Assembly (NCBI GenBank): GCA_051881755.1
Contig: JBJEQM010000180.1
Coordinates: forward strand, 1-33,644
Reading direction: 5' to 3'
Length of the DNA: 33,644 nt
From: Oscillospiraceae bacterium
Lineage (GTDB): Bacteria; Bacillota; Clostridia; Oscillospirales; Ruminococcaceae
Every line of letters begins with the position of its first letter. The first letter of the stretch is position 1. Both the position numbers and the translations under genes were made by a program. This document shows, one piece after another, positions 107-28,218 of this stretch. Below the pieces are notes generated by a model. That model had not been told where the DNA came from and did no database searches. It saw only the letters and a program-made list of their open reading frames with translations.

Positions 107-589
107 TTAAAGTCTTACCGTCTGCCTTGAAGCCGCGCGGATCTCCATAGTGCCGTCCTCGGGATAGAAGAACACCGTTCTGCCGAAGTTTTCGCCTGTC
201 TGCTCCGCGATTATCCTGATCCTGTATGCCGCCAGTATTTTTTTCACCGCGGCAACGTTTCTCTCGCCGATGTTGAATACGGACGAGGTGGTGCTGAACA
301 TCTGCGCGCCGCCAGCTATCTTCGCCACCAGACGGGAGGGCGAAGCTCCGCTCAGAGACATTGTCTGTATAAGCTCCGTAATGCCCGTGTCGGCGTAGCG
401 CCTGCGGTTGTCCACAGCGCTTCCTGCCGCCTCCTTGCTCAAGGGCAGCATAATATGCGCCAGACCCGCAATTTTCTTATCGGGATCGTAAAGACATATT
501 CCCACGCAGGAGCCGAGGGCGTAAGTCGCCAGCACATCAGGCTCCTTTGCAATATTCAGATCTGCGATTCCTACCGTTATAACTCCCAT
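107..589 (-). CDS. cheD: Chemoreceptor glutamine deamidase CheD
   Basis: 160-aa ORF with an ATG start. The segments YALGSCVGICLYD and GLAHIMLP match the CheD catalytic Cys/His regions. It starts 2 nt after the cheC stop, the pairing seen in Bacillus-type che loci. Confidence 0.9.
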   Translation of the reverse strand: MGVITVGIADLNIAKEPDVLATYALGSCVGICLYDPDKKIAGLAHIMLPLSKEAAGSAVDNRRRYADTGITELIQTMSLSGASPSRLVAKIAGGAQMFSTTSSVFNIGERNVAAVKKILAAYRIRIIAEQTGENFGRTVFFYPEDGTMEIRAASRQTVRL

Positions 590-591
590 GA

Positions 592-1215
592 TCAGATACC
601 TACTCCCAATCTGTTGAACAGCATTTCAAGGGAGGCCATTTCGGGAACAAGGATCATATTGCTCTTGACCTCACTGCCGCCTATAACGAAGCTGTCGTCA
701 ATGAAGAGCACCTTATTTCCTATCTGCGCAAACTGTACCGCCGGAACGCTGAGAATAGCGCCCACCATGTCAACACACATATGCGGCACGGATATGTCAA
801 TAGTCAGCCCCGTCAGAGAAGCAATAGCGTTTATGTACGAAGCGGACATAATATTGCCCACCTCGCCGATAAAGGAGCTCTCCATTTCATTCATGTTTCC
901 TATATCTTCTATATTGCTGCCGAACACCGCACTTGTCATCATGCTTGCGCAGGAATGCTGCAGCACATAGAGCATCATGCCGGAAATATCCCCCGTAAGA
1001 TTTACCAGCATACCTATAGCGATATTCTCGGGACCCCCAAGAAAATTCACCGCGTCTCCGAAATCCAGCAGCCTGACCGACGGCACGGATATATCCGTCA
1101 CACAGCCAAGCATGGTGGACAGAGCGCTTGCGGCGTTGCCCGAGCCTATATTTCCTATTTCCTTGAGGACGTCCATCTGCATCTCGCCAAGGTCCTCGAT
1201 ATTTGTAAGAGCCAT
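592..1215 (-). CDS. cheC: CheY-P phosphatase CheC
   Basis: 207 aa with two internal CheC repeats. Each carries a D/S-x3-E-x2-N-x22-P motif (DVLKEIGNIGSGNAASALSTMLGCVTDISVP and ESSFIGEVGNIMSASYINAIASLTGLTIDISVP). Confidence 0.9.
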   Translation of the reverse strand: MALTNIEDLGEMQMDVLKEIGNIGSGNAASALSTMLGCVTDISVPSVRLLDFGDAVNFLGGPENIAIGMLVNLTGDISGMMLYVLQHSCASMMTSAVFGSNIEDIGNMNEMESSFIGEVGNIMSASYINAIASLTGLTIDISVPHMCVDMVGAILSVPAVQFAQIGNKVLFIDDSFVIGGSEVKSNMILVPEMASLEMLFNRLGVGI

Positions 1216-2798: not shown

Positions 2799-3569
2799 TT
2801 ATTCCTTAGTATTGATATAATCTGCCATAAATCTCTTCATTTTCGCCACCGCCTGAGAGTGTATCTGACATACTCTCGATTCGGAAACGTCCAAAACCTG
2901 ACCTATATCGGAAAATTTCAGCTTTTCATAGTAGTATAACGTGATAACAAGCCGCTCGCGCTCTTTGAGAGAAGCGATAGCCTGCGCAAGATATTTCAGC
3001 TTTTCCTCTCTGTAAAGCGAAGCCTCCGCCGACCAGACGCCGTCCTCCGAGACCTCGTCGGGGATATCGAAATTGTTGTTGACCACCAGCTCCTCAAAGG
3101 AGAGGGTCTGAGCGGTAGCAGCCTTGGCAACGCAGCTTTCAAACTTATTTTTGGGCAGCTGCATATGCTCCGCCATCTCGTCGTCGGTAGGCTCTCTGTC
3201 CAGCTTGGCGTAAAGCTCGGCGTAAGCCGCGTCGTAATCGTGAGCGAACCTGCGCACATTACGCGGCACAATATCCTGCCGCCTGATGTAATCTATGACC
3301 GCGCCTCTCACCTTAATGGAGGCGTATGTCTCAAACTTGACGTTCTTGCTGAGATCGAAGCTTTCCACCGCCGACATAAGAGCGATAGTCGCCTCGTTTA
3401 TGATATCCTCGCTGTCCGCATATTTTGCATACATATTACGGGTCGAAAGCGCCGCATAGCGCACGATGTTCATGTATTCCATTACGACCTTGTTGCGGAG
3501 CGTTTTGTCGCCTGTTTCCTTGTATAAACGCAGAAGCTCCGCCTTTTCCGCAGAACTCATTTCAGGCAT
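2799..3569 (-). CDS. fliA: Flagellar sigma-28 factor (FliA/SigD family)
   Basis: 256 aa. Region 2 reads EDIINEATIALMSAVESFDLSKNVKFETYASIKVRGAVIDYIRRQD. The region 4 HTH reads LKFSDIGQVLDVSESRVCQIHSQAV. It is embedded in the flagellar operant position expected for sigD, 26 nt after flhA within the flagellar operon. Confidence 0.88.
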   Translation of the reverse strand: MPEMSSAEKAELLRLYKETGDKTLRNKVVMEYMNIVRYAALSTRNMYAKYADSEDIINEATIALMSAVESFDLSKNVKFETYASIKVRGAVIDYIRRQDIVPRNVRRFAHDYDAAYAELYAKLDREPTDDEMAEHMQLPKNKFESCVAKAATAQTLSFEELVVNNNFDIPDEVSEDGVWSAEASLYREEKLKYLAQAIASLKERERLVITLYYYEKLKFSDIGQVLDVSESRVCQIHSQAVAKMKRFMADYINTKE

Positions 3570-3595
3570 TTTACCACTCCTTTACGATAATATTA

Positions 3596-5674
3596 TTACG
3601 CAATAGAGATATTGCCAACAGCCTGTATCTGCACGGAATTGTCTATCTCGCTGAAAGAAAGCACGGTAACATTGGGTATAAACTGGTCGACCAGCTTTTT
3701 GAAATAAATACGCACGATTGGTGACGTAAGCACGATAGGCGTGGGGATAACGTCCTTTACCCTGTCTATCTGCTCGTTGAGCGCCGCAATAAGCAGCTGG
3801 ATAGTCTGAGGCTCCATTGCAAGATAGGAGCCCTGCTCGGATTTTTTCACCGAAGCCACTATCTTGTTTTCCGTCTCCGTGTCCAAAGTGAGGACTCGTA
3901 TCTGACCGCCGTCGGCATAACGCCTCGTTATGGTACGTTTCAGCGCCTGACGGACGTATTCCGTAGTAATGTCAACGTCCTTCATGGCGTGCTGATTGTC
4001 TGCGATAGTTTCAAGTATAGTCTGCAAGTCCCTGATAGGCACGCCCTCTTTAAGCAGCATCGCCAGCACTTTCTGCAAATATGCGGGCGTAACAATGGAG
4101 GGCACAATGTCCTCCACCACCGAGGGATTGGTCTGCTTCAGCTTGTCAAGCATGGTCTTGACGTCCTGACGGGAGAGCAGCTCATGCGCGTGGGACTTGA
4201 TTATCTCGGAAAGATGTGTGATAATGACCGAGGTGGGGTCGATAAGGGTGTAGCCCGCCACTTCCGCACGGAGCTTATCCTGCTCGGGTATCCACTTTGC
4301 GGGGATATTGAAAGCAGGCTCAATGGTGTCAATACCGTCCACCTCATGGGTGACGCTGCCGCTGTCCAGCGCAAGGTAATGATCCATCAGTACCTCCGCC
4401 TGCGCAACGATCTCGCCCTTTATCTTTATAACATACTGGTTAGGGTTGATGTGCTGATTATCCCTCATTCTTACCGAGGGGAACACCATACCCATATCTA
4501 TTGCAAACTGCTTTCGGAAGATAACAACACGCTCGATAAGGGTGCCGCCTGCGGACTCGTCCGCCAGCGGTATAAGGCTGTAGCCGAACTCCATTTCGAT
4601 AGGCTCAACTTCAAGCAGCTTGTAAACATTGTCAATATCCTTGTAATACTCCATTTCGGAGAGCGCTTCCCTGTTCTCCTCCATCTCCTGAGCGGTGGTG
4701 TTTGCCGCCATAGCCAGCTGCGAGTTGTTCCGCGTCAGTATTAATCCCAGCACAATAAGCCCCGAGCCCAGTATGACCAGCTGTACCTTCGGGAAGCCCG
4801 GTATAAGCATCATTACTATCATGACGATACCGGCGATCATAAGTACCCTCGGCTGAGACGTGAACTGATTTTTGATATCCACATTAAGGCTGCTTTCGGA
4901 AGCGGAACGGGTAACTATCATACCCATCGCCGTGGAGATAAGCAGCGCAGGCACCTGCGAGCAGAGACCGTCGCCGACGGTGGCAAGAGTGTAGGTGGAA
5001 AGAACGGTGGAAAAATCCATTTCCTCAAACACCAGACCCATAACGATACCGCCCACAAGGTTTACAACGGCGGCGATAATGGAGAAAGTCGCGTCGCCCT
5101 TAACGAACTTGGAAGCACCGTCCATGGCTCCGAAGAAGTCGGACTCACGCTGTATCTTGGCACGGCGCAGCTTGGCTTCCTCGTCGGTGATAACGCCGGA
5201 GTTAAGGTCGGCGTCGATGGACATCTGCTTACCCGGCATAGCGTCCAGCGTAAATCTTGCCGTTACCTCGGCAACTCGCTCGGCGCCCTTTGTAACTACC
5301 AGCATCTGTACAACGGTTATCAGTATAAATACGATAAATCCGATGATCGCGTTGCCGCGCATTACAAATTGTCCGAACGCCGAGACTATGTGTCCCGCGT
5401 CGCCCTTGTTTGCAAGGATAAGCTTTGTGGAGGATATGTTCAGACCCAGTCTGAATAGGGTGGTAACGAGGAGCAGGGACGGGAAAATAGAAAATTCCAA
5501 CGGCTCCTTTATGTACATTGTCATCAGAAGTATGACAAGGGATAAAGCGATATTAATAACGAACATCATATCCAGCAGCCATGAGGGCAGCGGAATAATG
5601 ATAAGGAATATTGCAAGTATTACAAATAGCGTAACAACGTTATCAAGATATTTTTTCATACGCTTGTAATACAC
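3596..5674 (-). CDS. flhA: Flagellar export apparatus protein FlhA
   Basis: 692 aa with a multi-TM N-terminal half and the FHIPEP segment GAERVAEVTARFTLDAMPGKQMSIDADL, then a large cytoplasmic C-domain. The ORF-track start is GTG at 5674. An ATG five codons in (5659) is an alternative start. Confidence 0.92.
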   Translation of the reverse strand: MYYKRMKKYLDNVVTLFVILAIFLIIIPLPSWLLDMMFVINIALSLVILLMTMYIKEPLEFSIFPSLLLVTTLFRLGLNISSTKLILANKGDAGHIVSAFGQFVMRGNAIIGFIVFILITVVQMLVVTKGAERVAEVTARFTLDAMPGKQMSIDADLNSGVITDEEAKLRRAKIQRESDFFGAMDGASKFVKGDATFSIIAAVVNLVGGIVMGLVFEEMDFSTVLSTYTLATVGDGLCSQVPALLISTAMGMIVTRSASESSLNVDIKNQFTSQPRVLMIAGIVMIVMMLIPGFPKVQLVILGSGLIVLGLILTRNNSQLAMAANTTAQEMEENREALSEMEYYKDIDNVYKLLEVEPIEMEFGYSLIPLADESAGGTLIERVVIFRKQFAIDMGMVFPSVRMRDNQHINPNQYVIKIKGEIVAQAEVLMDHYLALDSGSVTHEVDGIDTIEPAFNIPAKWIPEQDKLRAEVAGYTLIDPTSVIITHLSEIIKSHAHELLSRQDVKTMLDKLKQTNPSVVEDIVPSIVTPAYLQKVLAMLLKEGVPIRDLQTILETIADNQHAMKDVDITTEYVRQALKRTITRRYADGGQIRVLTLDTETENKIVASVKKSEQGSYLAMEPQTIQLLIAALNEQIDRVKDVIPTPIVLTSPIVRIYFKKLVDQFIPNVTVLSFSEIDNSVQIQAVGNISIA

Positions 5675-9255: not shown

Positions 9256-9618
9256 TTAGCCCAGAACCTTCTGTACTGTCTGGAGAATTCTGTCGGGCTT
9301 GAAAGGCTTAACGATAAAGTCCAGCGCGCCCAGCTTGATAGCCTCAACTACCATGGATTCCTGACCCATAGCGGAGCACATTACCACCTTGGCGCCTGGA
9401 TCGCTCTTCTTGATGTCACGCAGAGCCTCGATGCCTGTCTTGTTGGGCATAGTGATGTCCATGATAACAAGGTCGGGCTTCTCGGAAGCATAGGTGTTGC
9501 AGGCGATCTCGCCGTCGGCAGCCTCAATGATATTGGTGTAGCCATTCTTTGTGAGGGCGTCCTTGATCATCATTCTCATAAAAGCGGCGTCGTCAACAAG
9601 TAAAATCTTCTTATCCAT
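9256..9618 (-). CDS. cheY: Chemotaxis response regulator CheY
   Basis: 120-aa single receiver domain. It has the acidic pocket LLVDDAAFMR, the phospho-acceptor in LVIMDITMP, CSAMG (Ser at the conserved Thr/Ser position) and VKPF (Lys). Confidence 0.9.
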   Translation of the reverse strand: MDKKILLVDDAAFMRMMIKDALTKNGYTNIIEAADGEIACNTYASEKPDLVIMDITMPNKTGIEALRDIKKSDPGAKVVMCSAMGQESMVVEAIKLGALDFIVKPFKPDRILQTVQKVLG

Positions 9619-9624
9619 AACAAC

Positions 9625-11010
9625 TTACTCCTTACCTAAATTATCTAAAAATTTCGATTTTATTATTTCGGTTACTCTGACGGCAAAGTTGTCATCAATA
9701 ACAACAACGTCGCCCTTGGCGATCAGATTACCGTTTACGATAATGTCAACAGGCGCGCCTGCCTGTCTTTCCAGCTCTATAATGGTACCTTGTGTAAATT
9801 CCAGTATCTCCTTGACCTTTTTGGTAGTAGAGCCTATCTCGACGGAAACGTTCAGCGGAACGCCCATGAGCAGCTTAAGGTTATCATTCTGCTCCTGAGA
9901 GAGGGAGCTGTTCTGATATGAAGCGAAATTCTGCAGCTGAACAGGCTGTATATTCATAGCAGGCTGCTGCGGATAACCGCCGTAGGGCTGCTGATACATC
10001 TGCTGGGGCATACCCTGCTGCGGATACATTCCGTAGGGATTCTGCATCATGTTGGGGTCGTAGCCGTACTGCGGCATTGCCCCCGTCATACCCATGTTCG
10101 GCATACCCATGTTCTGATTTGGCATACCCGTATTCTGATTGGGGTATCCTGCGGTCTGCGGCTGCATACCCATGTTCGGCACCGCCGTGTTGGACTGCAT
10201 ATTCTGCGGCGCAGGACTTGGCGCGGGGCTCGGAGCAGGCTCGGGAGCAGCTCCGATATTTCCGCCGTTGAGCAGCGCTTCTATCTCCTCCTGAGTAAGT
10301 GTGCCGCCGCCCGATGAAGCGGTGCTTGGTGCAGGCTCGGGCTCAGGCTCGGGAGCCGGTGCGGACGCTGCTGCGGCTTCATCTGCCGCCGCGGAATATC
10401 CCGCCATCATTTTCTCCGCCATCTCCTTGGCAAGATTAATGGTGAGCACCGATATAAACTCGGAATTGATAACACCGTCAATGGTGAGGTTAAATTTTAC
10501 GCTTACAACATTTTCTTCCGCTTCCGCCTCGTAAAGGCTTGCGGCGTTCTGATACTGGTCGCCTTGTACGATAGCCTCGGGAGTGGAGATATCAACGGTG
10601 GTATCTATGATCTCCGAAAGCGCCGTAGCCGACGAGCCCATCATCTGGTTCATGACCTCGCATACCGCCGAGATATTCATTTCATCGAACTGGAAATCGT
10701 CCGTGACCTCCAAAGGAAGTCCCATCAGCTGGTCGAGAATAAGCTGAACGTCGTTCTGCTTGAGAACAAGCACATTCTGACCCTGAACGCCCTGTATGTA
10801 CTTGATCCTTACCATAATGGAAGGCTCAAGCTCGGGGAAGGAAAGATCCTTTGCCTTGACGATGGAGACCATAGGCGTCGTGATCCATACCTTGGCAGAA
10901 AGCATATTGGAAACGGCTGTGGCGGCGGAGCCCATGGTGATGTTCATTATCTCACCGATGGCGTCCATCTCGACTTCGCCGAAGCCGTCAATATATTTTT
11001 CATCGCTCAT
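9625..11010 (-). CDS. fliY: Flagellar motor switch phosphatase FliY (CheC-like domain, long low-complexity linker, FliN/SpoA domain)
   Basis: 461 aa. The N-terminal half has two CheC-type E-x2-N motifs (EMDAIGEIMNITMGSAATAVS...TTP and NISAVCEVMNQMMGSSATALS...STP). The C-terminus LLMGVPLNVSVEIGSTTKKVKEILEFTQGTIIELERQAGAPVDIIVNGNLIAKGDVVVIDDNFAVRVTEI is a FliN domain. Residues about 205-360 are low complexity. Confidence 0.88.
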   Translation of the reverse strand: MSDEKYIDGFGEVEMDAIGEIMNITMGSAATAVSNMLSAKVWITTPMVSIVKAKDLSFPELEPSIMVRIKYIQGVQGQNVLVLKQNDVQLILDQLMGLPLEVTDDFQFDEMNISAVCEVMNQMMGSSATALSEIIDTTVDISTPEAIVQGDQYQNAASLYEAEAEENVVSVKFNLTIDGVINSEFISVLTINLAKEMAEKMMAGYSAAADEAAAASAPAPEPEPEPAPSTASSGGGTLTQEEIEALLNGGNIGAAPEPAPSPAPSPAPQNMQSNTAVPNMGMQPQTAGYPNQNTGMPNQNMGMPNMGMTGAMPQYGYDPNMMQNPYGMYPQQGMPQQMYQQPYGGYPQQPAMNIQPVQLQNFASYQNSSLSQEQNDNLKLLMGVPLNVSVEIGSTTKKVKEILEFTQGTIIELERQAGAPVDIIVNGNLIAKGDVVVIDDNFAVRVTEIIKSKFLDNLGKE

Positions 11011-11018
11011 TAGTACTG

Positions 11019-12026
11019 CTACCTCAATTCTTTATATATATTATCAATTTTAACGGCTTTTTTGCTGTTGCTTATGCCGAGCTTTCCGTCGAACCAGACG
11101 TTATCGCCTATTTTAACGGTGACGTTGCTGTCAATAGGCATATTGAGCGGGATAACGTCGCCGGGCTGGAGGGTGAGCACATCGTACAGATCCAGCTCCG
11201 TTTCGCACAGCACGGTATCTATCCTCAGCTCGGATTCCTTGATAGCGTCCATAAGGGACAGCCTGCGCTCCTTTTCGCGCTTGGGGTCAAGCTTTTTGGT
11301 GCTTCTTGACCATCTGTCGCCGAACTTTGCCATCATAGATTCCAGATTAAGCGCCGGTATACAGAACGAGACCGTGTTTTTAACGTCCTTTATCTCCATT
11401 TCAAGCATGACCAGAATAACAACGTCGTCGGGTGAAATAGACTGCATAACGCGGGAGTTTGTCTCGATAGTGGTAAGCACGGGATTAGTCTCAATGTAGC
11501 TACCCCACGGCTCTTTCAGCAGACCCGCCATTTTGCTCAGCACATTTGACATAAGACCTACCTCTATCTCGGTAAAATCCCTGTTCATCTCTATGTAATT
11601 GCCCTCGCCGCCCATAAGGCGGTCCATCATAGCTCCCGTAATGGGGTTTGACAGCTGCATTATGCAGTTTGTTTCAAGCACATCGTCATCGGTAATGCCC
11701 ATGTTTATCATAGCCATCATAACATAATCGGGCAGCGCATTATTGAACTCGTAATAAAGCTGTTCTTCTATCTGAAGCACCTCAACCTTGCAGTAAACGC
11801 GCATAAGACCGGTAAGATAGGAAGAAAGCACACGCGAATAGTTTTCAAAAATACCGTCGATAACTTTAAGCTGTTCCTTGGTGAATTTTTTAGGCATCTT
11901 AAAGTCATAATTCTTGATCTTTTTTTCGCTGGCCTGCTCCTCGATCTCGTCCAATGCCTTAGCGCCCTCTGTGGAAAAGCTGTTCAGCAGCGCGTCGATC
12001 TGGCTTTGCGACAAAACGTCAGCCAT
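11019..12026 (-). CDS. fliM: Flagellar motor switch protein FliM
   Basis: 335 aa. The N-terminal CheY-P binding peptide is LSQSQIDALL. A CheC-like middle domain and a C-terminal SpoA-type domain (GDVIPLNMPIDSNVTVKIGDNVWFDGKLG) follow. Confidence 0.9.
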   Translation of the reverse strand: MADVLSQSQIDALLNSFSTEGAKALDEIEEQASEKKIKNYDFKMPKKFTKEQLKVIDGIFENYSRVLSSYLTGLMRVYCKVEVLQIEEQLYYEFNNALPDYVMMAMINMGITDDDVLETNCIMQLSNPITGAMMDRLMGGEGNYIEMNRDFTEIEVGLMSNVLSKMAGLLKEPWGSYIETNPVLTTIETNSRVMQSISPDDVVILVMLEMEIKDVKNTVSFCIPALNLESMMAKFGDRWSRSTKKLDPKREKERRLSLMDAIKESELRIDTVLCETELDLYDVLTLQPGDVIPLNMPIDSNVTVKIGDNVWFDGKLGISNSKKAVKIDNIYKELR

Positions 12027-26775: not shown

Positions 26776-27537
26776 TTAATCGTTTATCTCGGGATAAAGA
26801 TACTCGCATACCCTTGTATAATCCCGCGAAGCCTTGCAGCGCGGAGAATATGATGTAATGACCATCTGATGCGCGGGAGCCTCGGCGACTGCCACGGAGG
26901 AAGCGATCTTGTCCTCCAGCACCACCGTGCCCAGCTGCTTGGCGACGATCTCCACCATTTCCGCCACCTCCACCGCAAGGGTCTGCTTGGCGGAATACTT
27001 TGTCAGCAGTATGCCGCGTATATTAAGCTTTTTGTTGTAATATTTCTTCACCGCCAGAATGGTCTCGCGCAGCTGCGCAATACCCTGTAAGGACAGTATC
27101 TCGGGGGTCATGGGTATGATAAGGTCGTCGGCGGCGGTATATGCGTTTATGGTAAGTATGGACAGCGCGGGAGGCGTGTCGATAATGATATAGTCATACT
27201 CGTCGCGGACGGTTTTCAGTATCTCGCGGAGTATGAACTCGCGGCGCTCGCTGGTCAGCTCCAGCTCGCTGCCCGAAAGCAGGATATTGGAGGTGATAAC
27301 GTCGCATATGTTGGTGGTCTTTATGGCGTCGCGGATATCGCAGTCGCCCTTCATAACGTCGTGTATGGTATATCCCCTGTCCTCCGTGCCGAGGGAAAAG
27401 GAAAGGTTGCCCTGAGGGTCCATATCTATTGCAAGGACGGATTTGCCCCTGCTTCTGAAAATGCCCGTAAACGCCGCGCAGGTGGTAGTTTTTCCTACGC
27501 CGCCCTTCTGATTTGTAACAACAATAACTTTAGCCAT
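26776..27537 (-). CDS. Orphan ParA/Soj-type P-loop ATPase
   Basis: 253 aa. The deviant Walker A is NQKGGVGKTTT, followed by LAIDMDPQGN and Walker B YDYIIIDTPPAL. No parB-like gene is adjacent. Confidence 0.85.
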   Translation of the reverse strand: MAKVIVVTNQKGGVGKTTTCAAFTGIFRSRGKSVLAIDMDPQGNLSFSLGTEDRGYTIHDVMKGDCDIRDAIKTTNICDVITSNILLSGSELELTSERREFILREILKTVRDEYDYIIIDTPPALSILTINAYTAADDLIIPMTPEILSLQGIAQLRETILAVKKYYNKKLNIRGILLTKYSAKQTLAVEVAEMVEIVAKQLGTVVLEDKIASSVAVAEAPAHQMVITSYSPRCKASRDYTRVCEYLYPEIND

Positions 27538-27552
27538 ATTATTCCATTCCTA

Positions 27553-28218
27553 TCAATATGCTCTCTTGCTTTTTTCGTTTCTCATGCGCTCGCGCTCGAT
27601 AAGCTGACATTCCAGAATAAACCTCGCCAGACGCTCCTCCTGCTGTGAGGTGACGTTGAGGAAGCGGCAGCCGTAGCCGTCCACCTCGTCGGTATCCTGA
27701 ATTTTCTGCACTCTCAGCACCTCTGCCAGAAGCTCCATTTCCCCGTCGAGGAAGTTCAGCATGACCTGATCCTCGGGTCGGAACTCAAACTCCGAGCGCA
27801 GGTAAGCTCCGCCGATATTAAGGTTGACAAAGTCCACGCAGATAGGCGAATCAAAGGTGCACATCTCCCCGTCGCGGATATAGAACGGCGAAGTGCCCAC
27901 AAACTGCACATTTATCTTGAAGTACCGTCTGCGCTCCTGAAGCGCGATGCCGTCGCCGACGTGAAAATTTATCTGATATTCCGTGCAAAGGTCTACCGAT
28001 GTGGAATATTTCATTCTTGCGCCGTTGAGATACTCGAAAATGACGTCGATATACTCGTCCTTGGTTATAAGCGGAAAATCCGCGCCCTTGAGCATTACAA
28101 GATCCTTGCCCCTTATGCCGAAGAAGTCCTTGGGGAAATAGACTGATTTTGTCGTCAGCAGCAGTTTTCCGTTGCGGTCGTATATCATGACCTTGTTTAT
28201 TTTATCTTTGTTTATCAT
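27553..28218 (-). CDS. PilZ-domain protein, YcgR/MotI-like two-domain architecture
   Basis: 221 aa. The C-terminal half has the PilZ-like motifs QERRRYFK (RxxxR-type, last position Lys) and VNLNIGGA (D/NxSxxG-type, Ser replaced by Asn). The N-terminal roughly 90 aa form a beta-rich domain, as in YcgR-N/MotI. Confidence 0.7.
   Translation of the reverse strand: MINKDKINKVMIYDRNGKLLLTTKSVYFPKDFFGIRGKDLVMLKGADFPLITKDEYIDVIFEYLNGARMKYSTSVDLCTEYQINFHVGDGIALQERRRYFKINVQFVGTSPFYIRDGEMCTFDSPICVDFVNLNIGGAYLRSEFEFRPEDQVMLNFLDGEMELLAEVLRVQKIQDTDEVDGYGCRFLNVTSQQEERLARFILECQLIERERMRNEKSKRAY

Follow-up and report, generated by a model that had tools for sequence, protein, structure and literature searches.

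A clostridial FliY subfamily with a putative CheY-P docking motif in the interdomain linker and no N-terminal peptide

FliY is a textbook case of a signal that is switched off where it acts. The DNA analysed, referred to below as the window, is a stretch of 33,644 nucleotides (nt) from an Oscillospiraceae bacterium (GenBank assembly GCA_051881755.1, contig JBJEQM010000180.1, positions 1 to 33,644 of the forward strand) and encodes, on the reverse strand, a flagellar and chemotaxis locus that includes fliY. In FliY of Bacillus subtilis the docking motif, of the EIDAL type also found in FliM, is located at the N-terminus (PMC8809382). A preliminary description of the window, made from its sequence, had reported that the FliY encoded there has nothing ahead of the CheC-like phosphatase domain and carries the peptide inside the protein, between this domain and the FliN domain, and had taken the arrangement for the possible outcome of a gene fusion or of a permutation of FliY. 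The internal peptide and the missing N-terminal one were both borne out by the present analysis. A fusion was not supported, and the arrangement is not special to this organism. The protein is a single-copy member of a widespread and apparently undescribed FliY subfamily, the members of which have no N-terminal peptide and carry 0 to 4 copies of the motif in the linker.

Score, domain content, catalytic residues and gene neighbourhood all place the protein in the FliY family. It gave 311.1 bits against the NCBIfam FliY model NF005995, for which the cut-off is 218, and its domains and neighbouring genes are listed in Table 1. Two CheC repeats were recognized by Pfam, the best stretch being amino acids (aa) 111-147, together with a CheX match at 15-69, and the CheC-like domain was modelled by AlphaFold2 from a 68-sequence alignment with predicted local distance difference test (pLDDT) scores of 90-95. 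In a set of 68 diverse homologues the residues D16, E20, N23 and P46 of the first phosphatase site and S114, E118, N121 and P144 of the second site are invariant. Both sites are intact, as is the FliN domain, and activity towards phosphorylated CheY (CheY-P) is itself predicted from these catalytic-site residues. The one feature of characterised FliY proteins that the window protein lacks is the N-terminal position of the docking peptide. The protein begins MSDEKYIDGFGEVEMDAIGEIMN, which leads straight into the CheC-like domain, and its match to NF005995 begins at profile position 33 of 376, so that the part of the model containing the N-terminal peptide is left unmatched. A hidden N-terminal extension or a wrongly chosen start codon was considered as an explanation and ruled out, because the open frame consists of 468 codons with just 7 open codons before the ATG, and fliM ends at 11019, only 9 nt upstream of fliY, which makes an extension impossible. 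No second canonical FliY or FliN was found in the window genome, where PF01052 occurs in FliM and FliY only, and Lacrimispora, Mediterraneibacter, Agathobaculum, Anaerotruncus and Intestinimonas likewise have one FliY and a CheC.

The internal motif, TLTQEEIEALLNGG, is read from the reverse complement of positions 10261-10302 (ACA CTT ACT CAG GAG GAG ATA GAA GCG CTG CTC AAC GGC GGA) and corresponds to aa 237-250, in agreement with the preliminary description. It is present as a single copy located about 33 aa past the CheC-like domain and about 130 aa ahead of the FliN domain, its immediate flanks are ...APAPEPEPEPAPSTASSGGG and NIGAAPEPAPSPAPSPAP, and the PEPEPEPAPS and APEPAPSPAPSPAP spacers reported on either side were both found. 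The ten-residue core, LTQEEIEALL, is identical at 8 of 10 positions to the commonest canonical form, LSQEEI[N/D]ALL, and departs from it by threonine for serine at position 2 and by glutamate for aspartate or asparagine at position 7. A strict motif pattern occurred in 7 of 200,000 shuffles of the linker (a frequency of 3.5e-5), and a chance origin of the match is excluded. The motif is also conserved. Of the 120 homologues closest to the protein in the database (69-96% identity), nearly all carry it at aa 226-239, and in this set the identity to the window is 0.76 for the motif and 0.50 for the rest of the linker, the length and sequence of which vary between homologues. Where identity between homologues falls to about 40%, the Pro/Ala-rich part of the linker has SxGGxLSQEEIExLLxG as its main conserved element, with consistent Gly-rich flanks (SGG[T/V] before and xGG after the motif). 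The AlphaFold2 model has no structure in aa 216-371 except for one helix at 240-247, which coincides with the motif; pLDDT is mostly 38-56 in the linker, about 65 in the motif helix and 50-56 on either side of it. The motif is thus predicted, by modelling only, to be a short helix inside an otherwise disordered segment. Two further observations were made on the linker. A second conserved element occurs just before the FliN domain (window positions 9898-10140, reverse strand, aa about 291-371, PQYGYDPNMM...YGGYPQQPAMNIQPVQLQNF), the core of which, INxQPxQxxxF, is kept down to homologues of about 40% identity. PF28396.1 appears in the precomputed domain lists of most, not all, of the motif-bearing close homologues in the set of 120.

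The distribution of the two motif positions was examined by a HMMER search of 1.84 billion cluster representatives, the best 150 matches being analysed with the strict motif pattern, and by scanning one genome per species for named loci (80 loci, of which 70 proteins were parsed with a broader pattern). Among the best 150 cluster representatives the motif is N-terminal in 32 and internal, in 1-3 copies, in 13; no protein with both an N-terminal and an internal motif was found among these 150 or among the named loci. The 70 parsed proteins have no internal copy in 16 cases, one in 27, two in 17, three in nine and four in one, the first copy lying 207-243 aa past the first CheC motif and the copies following one another with a median period of 31 aa. 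In one locus (L092) a 93-bp tandem DNA repeat of 2.8 copies with 79% matches spans the motif copies, which indicates that copy number changes by tandem duplication. Carriers of the internal motif include uncultured Ruminococcus and Oscillospiraceae metagenome-assembled genomes, Huintestinicola, Oscillibacter, Intestinimonas, Lawsonibacter, Agathobaculum ammoniilyticum and Anaerotignum, as well as genomes labelled Lachnospiraceae, namely Lacrimispora sinapis JR3, Lacrimispora sp. HJ-01, Mediterraneibacter glycyrrhizinilyticus, Coprococcus and Hungatella. Some proteins first scored as motif-less have variant motifs (MSQAEMDAMF, LSDEEIAKLL, LSQADIDAML), a few clade members have degenerate copies (LSQKEAEELM, LSQAEIESRL), and others have none, among them Anaerotruncus colihominis, Marasmitruncus and several Oscillospiraceae genera. 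When the class was sampled evenly, most of the FliY proteins examined proved canonical; in this sample and in a Lachnospiraceae sample the canonical proteins carry LSQxEI[DN]ALL at a distance of 23-67 aa ahead of the first CheC motif, in line with the N-terminal position that the preliminary description gave for characterised FliY. A different layout was seen in some FliY proteins of Oscillospiraceae and other Clostridia, which have two to four tandem CheC-like domains before FliN, are about 550-860 aa long and contain no EIDAL motif (L227, G352:C22, a 644-aa open reading frame; L228, G319:C10; P0122, P0129, P0132, P0140, P0143 and P0174).

A tree of 120 sequences was calculated with IQ-TREE in quick mode, with support from the Shimodaira-Hasegawa-like approximate likelihood ratio test (SH-aLRT); it was based on the columns of the CheC-like and FliN domains, without those of the linker or the N-terminus. 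Long branches, supported by 100% SH-aLRT on either side, set the 14 sequences with an N-terminal motif apart from the 106 that lack the N-terminal peptide. Two large groups within the N-terminus-less clade commonly carry the internal motif, namely the Oscillospiraceae group of the window and a group of Oscillibacter, Intestinimonas and Lachnospiraceae, and it is missing from an Anaerotruncus group and from the most basal sequences. Under the strict pattern at least 11 changes of internal-motif state occur on the tree, the true number being lower because variant motifs were scored as absent, and one gain with many losses is not distinguishable from several gains since the tree is unrooted. The preliminary description had proposed that the arrangement arose when a stand-alone CheC phosphatase was fused to a FliN carrying an N-terminal EIDAL peptide and a linker. 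Such a fusion would yield the order of CheC-like domain, motif and FliN domain that is seen, and EIDAL-like motifs have been reported to be sporadic in FliN and FliY proteins, with nothing further noted there (PMC6946799). Against this origin, the CheC-like domain is of the FliY type, matching the FliY structure 4HYN with 111 bits versus 47 bits for CheC (1XKR), and the protein gives 311 bits with NF005995 versus 73 bits with the CheC model. The window also contains a cheC gene of its own, motif-less proteins with this two-domain architecture are placed both at the base of the clade and inside it, and no stand-alone EIDAL-FliN gene was found. Two loci with apparently split CheC-like and EIDAL-FliN genes, considered as evidence of fusion, were rejected as artefacts, one being a frameshift in an ADAT repeat (L225) and the other being due to masked bases (L226). 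An origin by fusion is accordingly quite unlikely, and loss of the N-terminal peptide together with gain of the linker motif within the FliY lineage fits better. The comparison of orthologues thus agrees with one part of what the preliminary description had named as grounds for setting its proposal aside, that the internal position is a common clostridial arrangement, and disagrees with the other, that it is already described, in so far as the literature can be searched: no paper describing an internal or repeated FliY motif was found, subscription-only papers lying outside the search. The family modelled by NF005275 was considered as a possible known internal-motif family and rejected, as it represents FliY with two CheC-like domains and the motif is not mentioned.

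The N-terminus-less FliY clade is almost confined to genomes without FlhF or FlhG, which is new here and the most useful new lead of the analysis. With the FlhF profile TIGR03499 (cut-off 174 bits) no match above the cut-off was found in 10 genomes with N-terminus-less FliY, a set that includes the window genome (G000), its 99%-complete congener (G305), complete Lacrimispora sinapis, Mediterraneibacter glycyrrhizinilyticus and Anaerotruncus colihominis, and FlhF was found in five of five genomes with canonical FliY, a few kb from fliY. Absence from the window genome alone would be weak evidence, since this genome is 86% complete. None of 301 genomes of the family of the window has FlhF, and 125 of them have FliY. 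The class sample contained 105 FliY-positive genomes, and the 10 of these without FlhF include all five sampled members of the N-terminus-less clade. In the Lachnospiraceae sample, where canonical FliY was defined by a profile match starting at position 2-3, FlhF is present with canonical FliY in 66 of 66 cases and missing in 12 of the 13 with N-terminus-less FliY. The single exception (L214, G742:C39:48000-50100) is a FliY of the canonical clade that has lost the N-terminal motif, in a genome that has kept FlhF. A further exception to the association is a FliY (L023 in G004; also G046 and G079 of its family f9) that is a long-branch member of the canonical clade and has no motif; FlhF was not found in f9. 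A clostridial FlhG query gave only MinD-like matches of 70-84 bits in the window genome, its congener, Lacrimispora and Mediterraneibacter, and a 284-bit orthologue in a canonical genome as positive control. The gene order of the window agrees with this: a canonical clostridial locus (L173) reads flhA-flhF-flhG, and in the window no flhF or flhG is located between flhA and the sigma factor gene that directly follows it, beyond which come two flgF/G-like genes, cheC and cheD. In Geobacillus the N-terminal 36 residues of FliY (FliY-N36) are reported to be both required and sufficient for the binding of FlhG (PMC12327844), so that the canonical N-terminus has two partners, one of which is nonexistent in the lineage of the window.

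Table 1 Features of the FliY protein and of the surrounding genes in the window
Feature	Position	Strand	Description and evidence
fliY	9625..11010	(-)	461 aa; CheC-like phosphatase domain, disordered linker and FliN (SpoA) domain; open reading frame, Pfam, NF005995
CheC-like domain, aa about 10-205	10396..10983	(-)	Aligned to T. maritima FliY middle domain 4HYN over aa 14-201
First phosphatase site, aa 16-46	10873..10965	(-)	D-x3-E-x2-N-x22-P (DAIGEIMN...P46); from translation
Second phosphatase site, aa 114-144	10579..10671	(-)	S-x3-E-x2-N-x22-P (SAVCEVMN...P144); from translation
FliY linker, aa 206-371	9898..10395	(-)	Pro/Ala-rich first part, Q/N/M/G/P/Y-rich second part
Internal EIDAL-type motif TLTQEEIEALLNGG, aa 237-250	10261..10302	(-)	Translation; conserved in close and distant homologues; predicted helix 240-247
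FliN / SpoA domain, aa 380-450	9661..9873	(-)	PF01052 (FliMN_C), 80-84 bits; matches FliN structures 1O6A, 1YAB, 8UMD
fliM	11019..12026	(-)	335 aa; TIGR01397 226 bits; Pfam FliM and FliMN_C
FliM N-terminal CheY-binding motif LSQSQIDALL, aa 5-14	11985..12014	(-)	Translation
cheY, directly downstream of fliY	9256..9618	(-)	120 aa; Response_reg 109 bits
Stand-alone cheC (592-1215) and cheD (107-589)	107..1215	(-)	Pfam CheC, CheD
flhA (3596-5674), then directly FliA/SigD-type sigma factor (2799-3569)	2799..5674	(-)	Pfam FHIPEP; Sigma70 r2/r3/r4
ParA-type ATPase, upstream of flgB	26776..27537	(-)	Pfam AAA_31, CbiA; 28% identical to clostridial FlhG
PilZ gene adjoining the ParA-type ATPase	27553-28218	(-)	Pfam PilZ

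The linker motif is probably a relocated docking motif for CheY-P that tethers it beside the intact phosphatase sites. FliY would act as a FliN-equivalent C-ring subunit bearing an active CheC-type CheY-P phosphatase domain, and the docking peptide would have moved from the canonical N-terminal LSQxEI(D/N)ALL helix to one near-identical, helix-forming linear motif in the disordered linker. CheY-P would bind this motif by its alpha4-beta5-alpha5 face, as with the N-terminus of FliM, and would thereby be kept close to both phosphatase sites at the C-ring base. The signal would then, as proposed, be hydrolysed where it is acting. Both the binding of CheY-P by the linker motif and its effect on dephosphorylation are what we infer. 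The CheY encoded next to fliY has its best structural match in Thermotoga maritima CheY (1TMY, 4IGA; E 1.5e-41), and the alpha4-beta5-alpha5 stretch, which is the peptide-binding one, is well conserved between the two. FliM has the N-terminal LSQSQIDALL given in the preliminary description; its own motif would be retained for switching, and 59 of 60 fliM genes that adjoin an N-terminus-less fliY still encode such an N-terminal motif. The layout belongs to a distinct clostridial flagellar lineage without FlhF and FlhG, in which the N-terminal end that elsewhere serves as the handle for FlhG would have been lost and CheY capture placed in a linker module able to grow to 1-4 copies through tandem duplication. 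Several findings weigh against this reading. The pLDDT of the motif helix is modest, at about 65. Position 7 is glutamate in 116 of 155 internal copies, versus asparagine or aspartate in 72 of 76 N-terminal FliY copies, and position 8 of the internal copies is often lysine or arginine rather than alanine; with such EIE-type variation the strength of binding, or even the identity of the partner, could be different. The clade also includes many motif-less relatives, such as Anaerotruncus and Marasmitruncus, and these still have cheY after fliY in 32 of 33 loci, which led to the rejection of a pairing of motif loss with chemotaxis loss and implies that the motif is dispensable for a working chemotactic motor, being an accessory and not a requirement. 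The association with FlhF contrasts two deep lineages of the flagellar locus, and the genome counts given above are therefore not independent events.

Two other explanations of the motif were weighed against docking of CheY-P. The motif could be functionless, having arisen by chance in a low-complexity linker or being in decay there, given that many members of the clade have no motif, that a few have the degenerate copies listed above, and that the remaining linker is highly variable; this is nevertheless very improbable in view of the shuffle frequency, of the conservation of the motif at about 40% identity where the surrounding Pro/Ala-rich linker is not conserved, of the tandem amplification of whole units with the motif preserved, and of the consistent Gly-rich flanks. 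The motif could also be a handle for a factor of flagellar assembly or placement, instead of or besides CheY-P, the candidate being the ParA-type ATPase that the window encodes beside a PilZ protein, immediately upstream of the flagellar operon. The parallel is with FlhG, a MinD/ParA-type ATPase bound by FliY-N36 in Geobacillus (PMC12327844); FlhG was not found in the window genome, where the ParA-like protein may replace it in this flagellar lineage, and the internal motif has a flavour of its own, EIE[A/K/R]L. ParA-like orthologues with 44-56% identity occur in four genomes (G599:C1:2943544-2944290, G600:C1:2879550-2880281, G603:C28:34463-35197 and G602:C1:2215713-2216465), about 10-30 kb from fliY or cheC and thus near flagellar loci, and FliY is N-terminus-less in all four; a canonical-FliY genome has just a 39% Soj-like match. 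On the other side, the ParA-like protein is just 28% identical to FlhG and begins MAKVIVVTNQKGGVGKTT, without the DQAxxLR activator motif of clostridial FlhG, Anaerotruncus has the ParA-like gene and no FliY motif, the co-distribution of the ParA-like gene with FliY type was examined in five genomes, and the sequences that the motif resembles most are the CheY-binding peptides found in FliM and FliY. Such a role in recruiting the ATPase is on balance unlikely, if less so than a motif without function, and docking of CheY-P is preferred. A broader idea, which is speculative, is that where the docking peptide sits is linked to the way in which flagella are placed: the N-terminal EIDAL peptide would be kept mainly as the handle of FlhG in systems with FlhF and FlhG, and in the lineage without them this end would have been lost and an expandable array of 1-4 EIE-type linker motifs would have evolved, which might set the capacity of the motor for CheY-P capture and as a CheY-P sink, or might recruit the lineage-specific ParA-like ATPase as a new C-ring assembly factor.

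The arrangement matters because the N-terminal peptide of FliY has two reported partners, CheY-P and FlhG, and a natural subfamily lets the two roles be separated. In this subfamily the peptide is on the other side of the phosphatase domain and is multiplied, so that the effect of tether position and copy number on the lifetime of CheY-P at the motor becomes testable. It is found in Oscillospiraceae and Lachnospiraceae, flagellated commensals that are abundant in the gut, and their motility loci are already being linked to host immune responses (bioRxiv 10.1101/2025.07.18.665615).

Compared with known systems, the window protein is closest to the canonical FliY of Bacillus subtilis, Geobacillus and Thermotoga maritima (NF005995, 4HYN), with which it shares the two-site CheC-like domain, the C-terminal FliN/SpoA domain, a gene directly after fliM that replaces FliN, and a FliM-type LSQxEIxALL peptide. 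It differs from canonical FliY in that the peptide lies in the interdomain linker, about 33 aa past the phosphatase domain, and not at the N-terminus, in that the motif is EIE and not EID or EIN, with 0-4 tandem copies in relatives, and in that the genomes of its lineage are without the FlhF and FlhG that use the canonical N-terminus. With the N-terminal peptide of FliM (FliM_N, EIDAL) the motif has in common the ten-residue consensus, a predicted amphipathic helix in disorder and its presence on a C-ring protein, but it is internal and is carried by the phosphatase/FliN subunit rather than by the switch subunit, and the FliM copy of the same genome has aspartate at position 7. The docking of FlhG (YlxH/FleN) on FliY-N36 in Geobacillus and Bacillus likewise relies on a FliY peptide of this class; in the window genome and the sampled relatives, however, no FlhG or FlhF orthologue was found, and only a distant ParA-like ATPase is encoded close to the flagellar operon. 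The preprint named above sorts gut Clostridia by the arrangement of their motility loci and by their flagellins (Neville et al. 2013 is cited there); a term search of its text found no mention of fliY, flhF or flhG. In its 'G2' arrangement (bioRxiv 10.1101/2025.07.18.665615) flhA and flgF are one gene apart, as they are in the window (flhA, sigma factor, flgF-like), and the 'G2' group is dominated by Oscillospiraceae together with some Lachnospiraceae.

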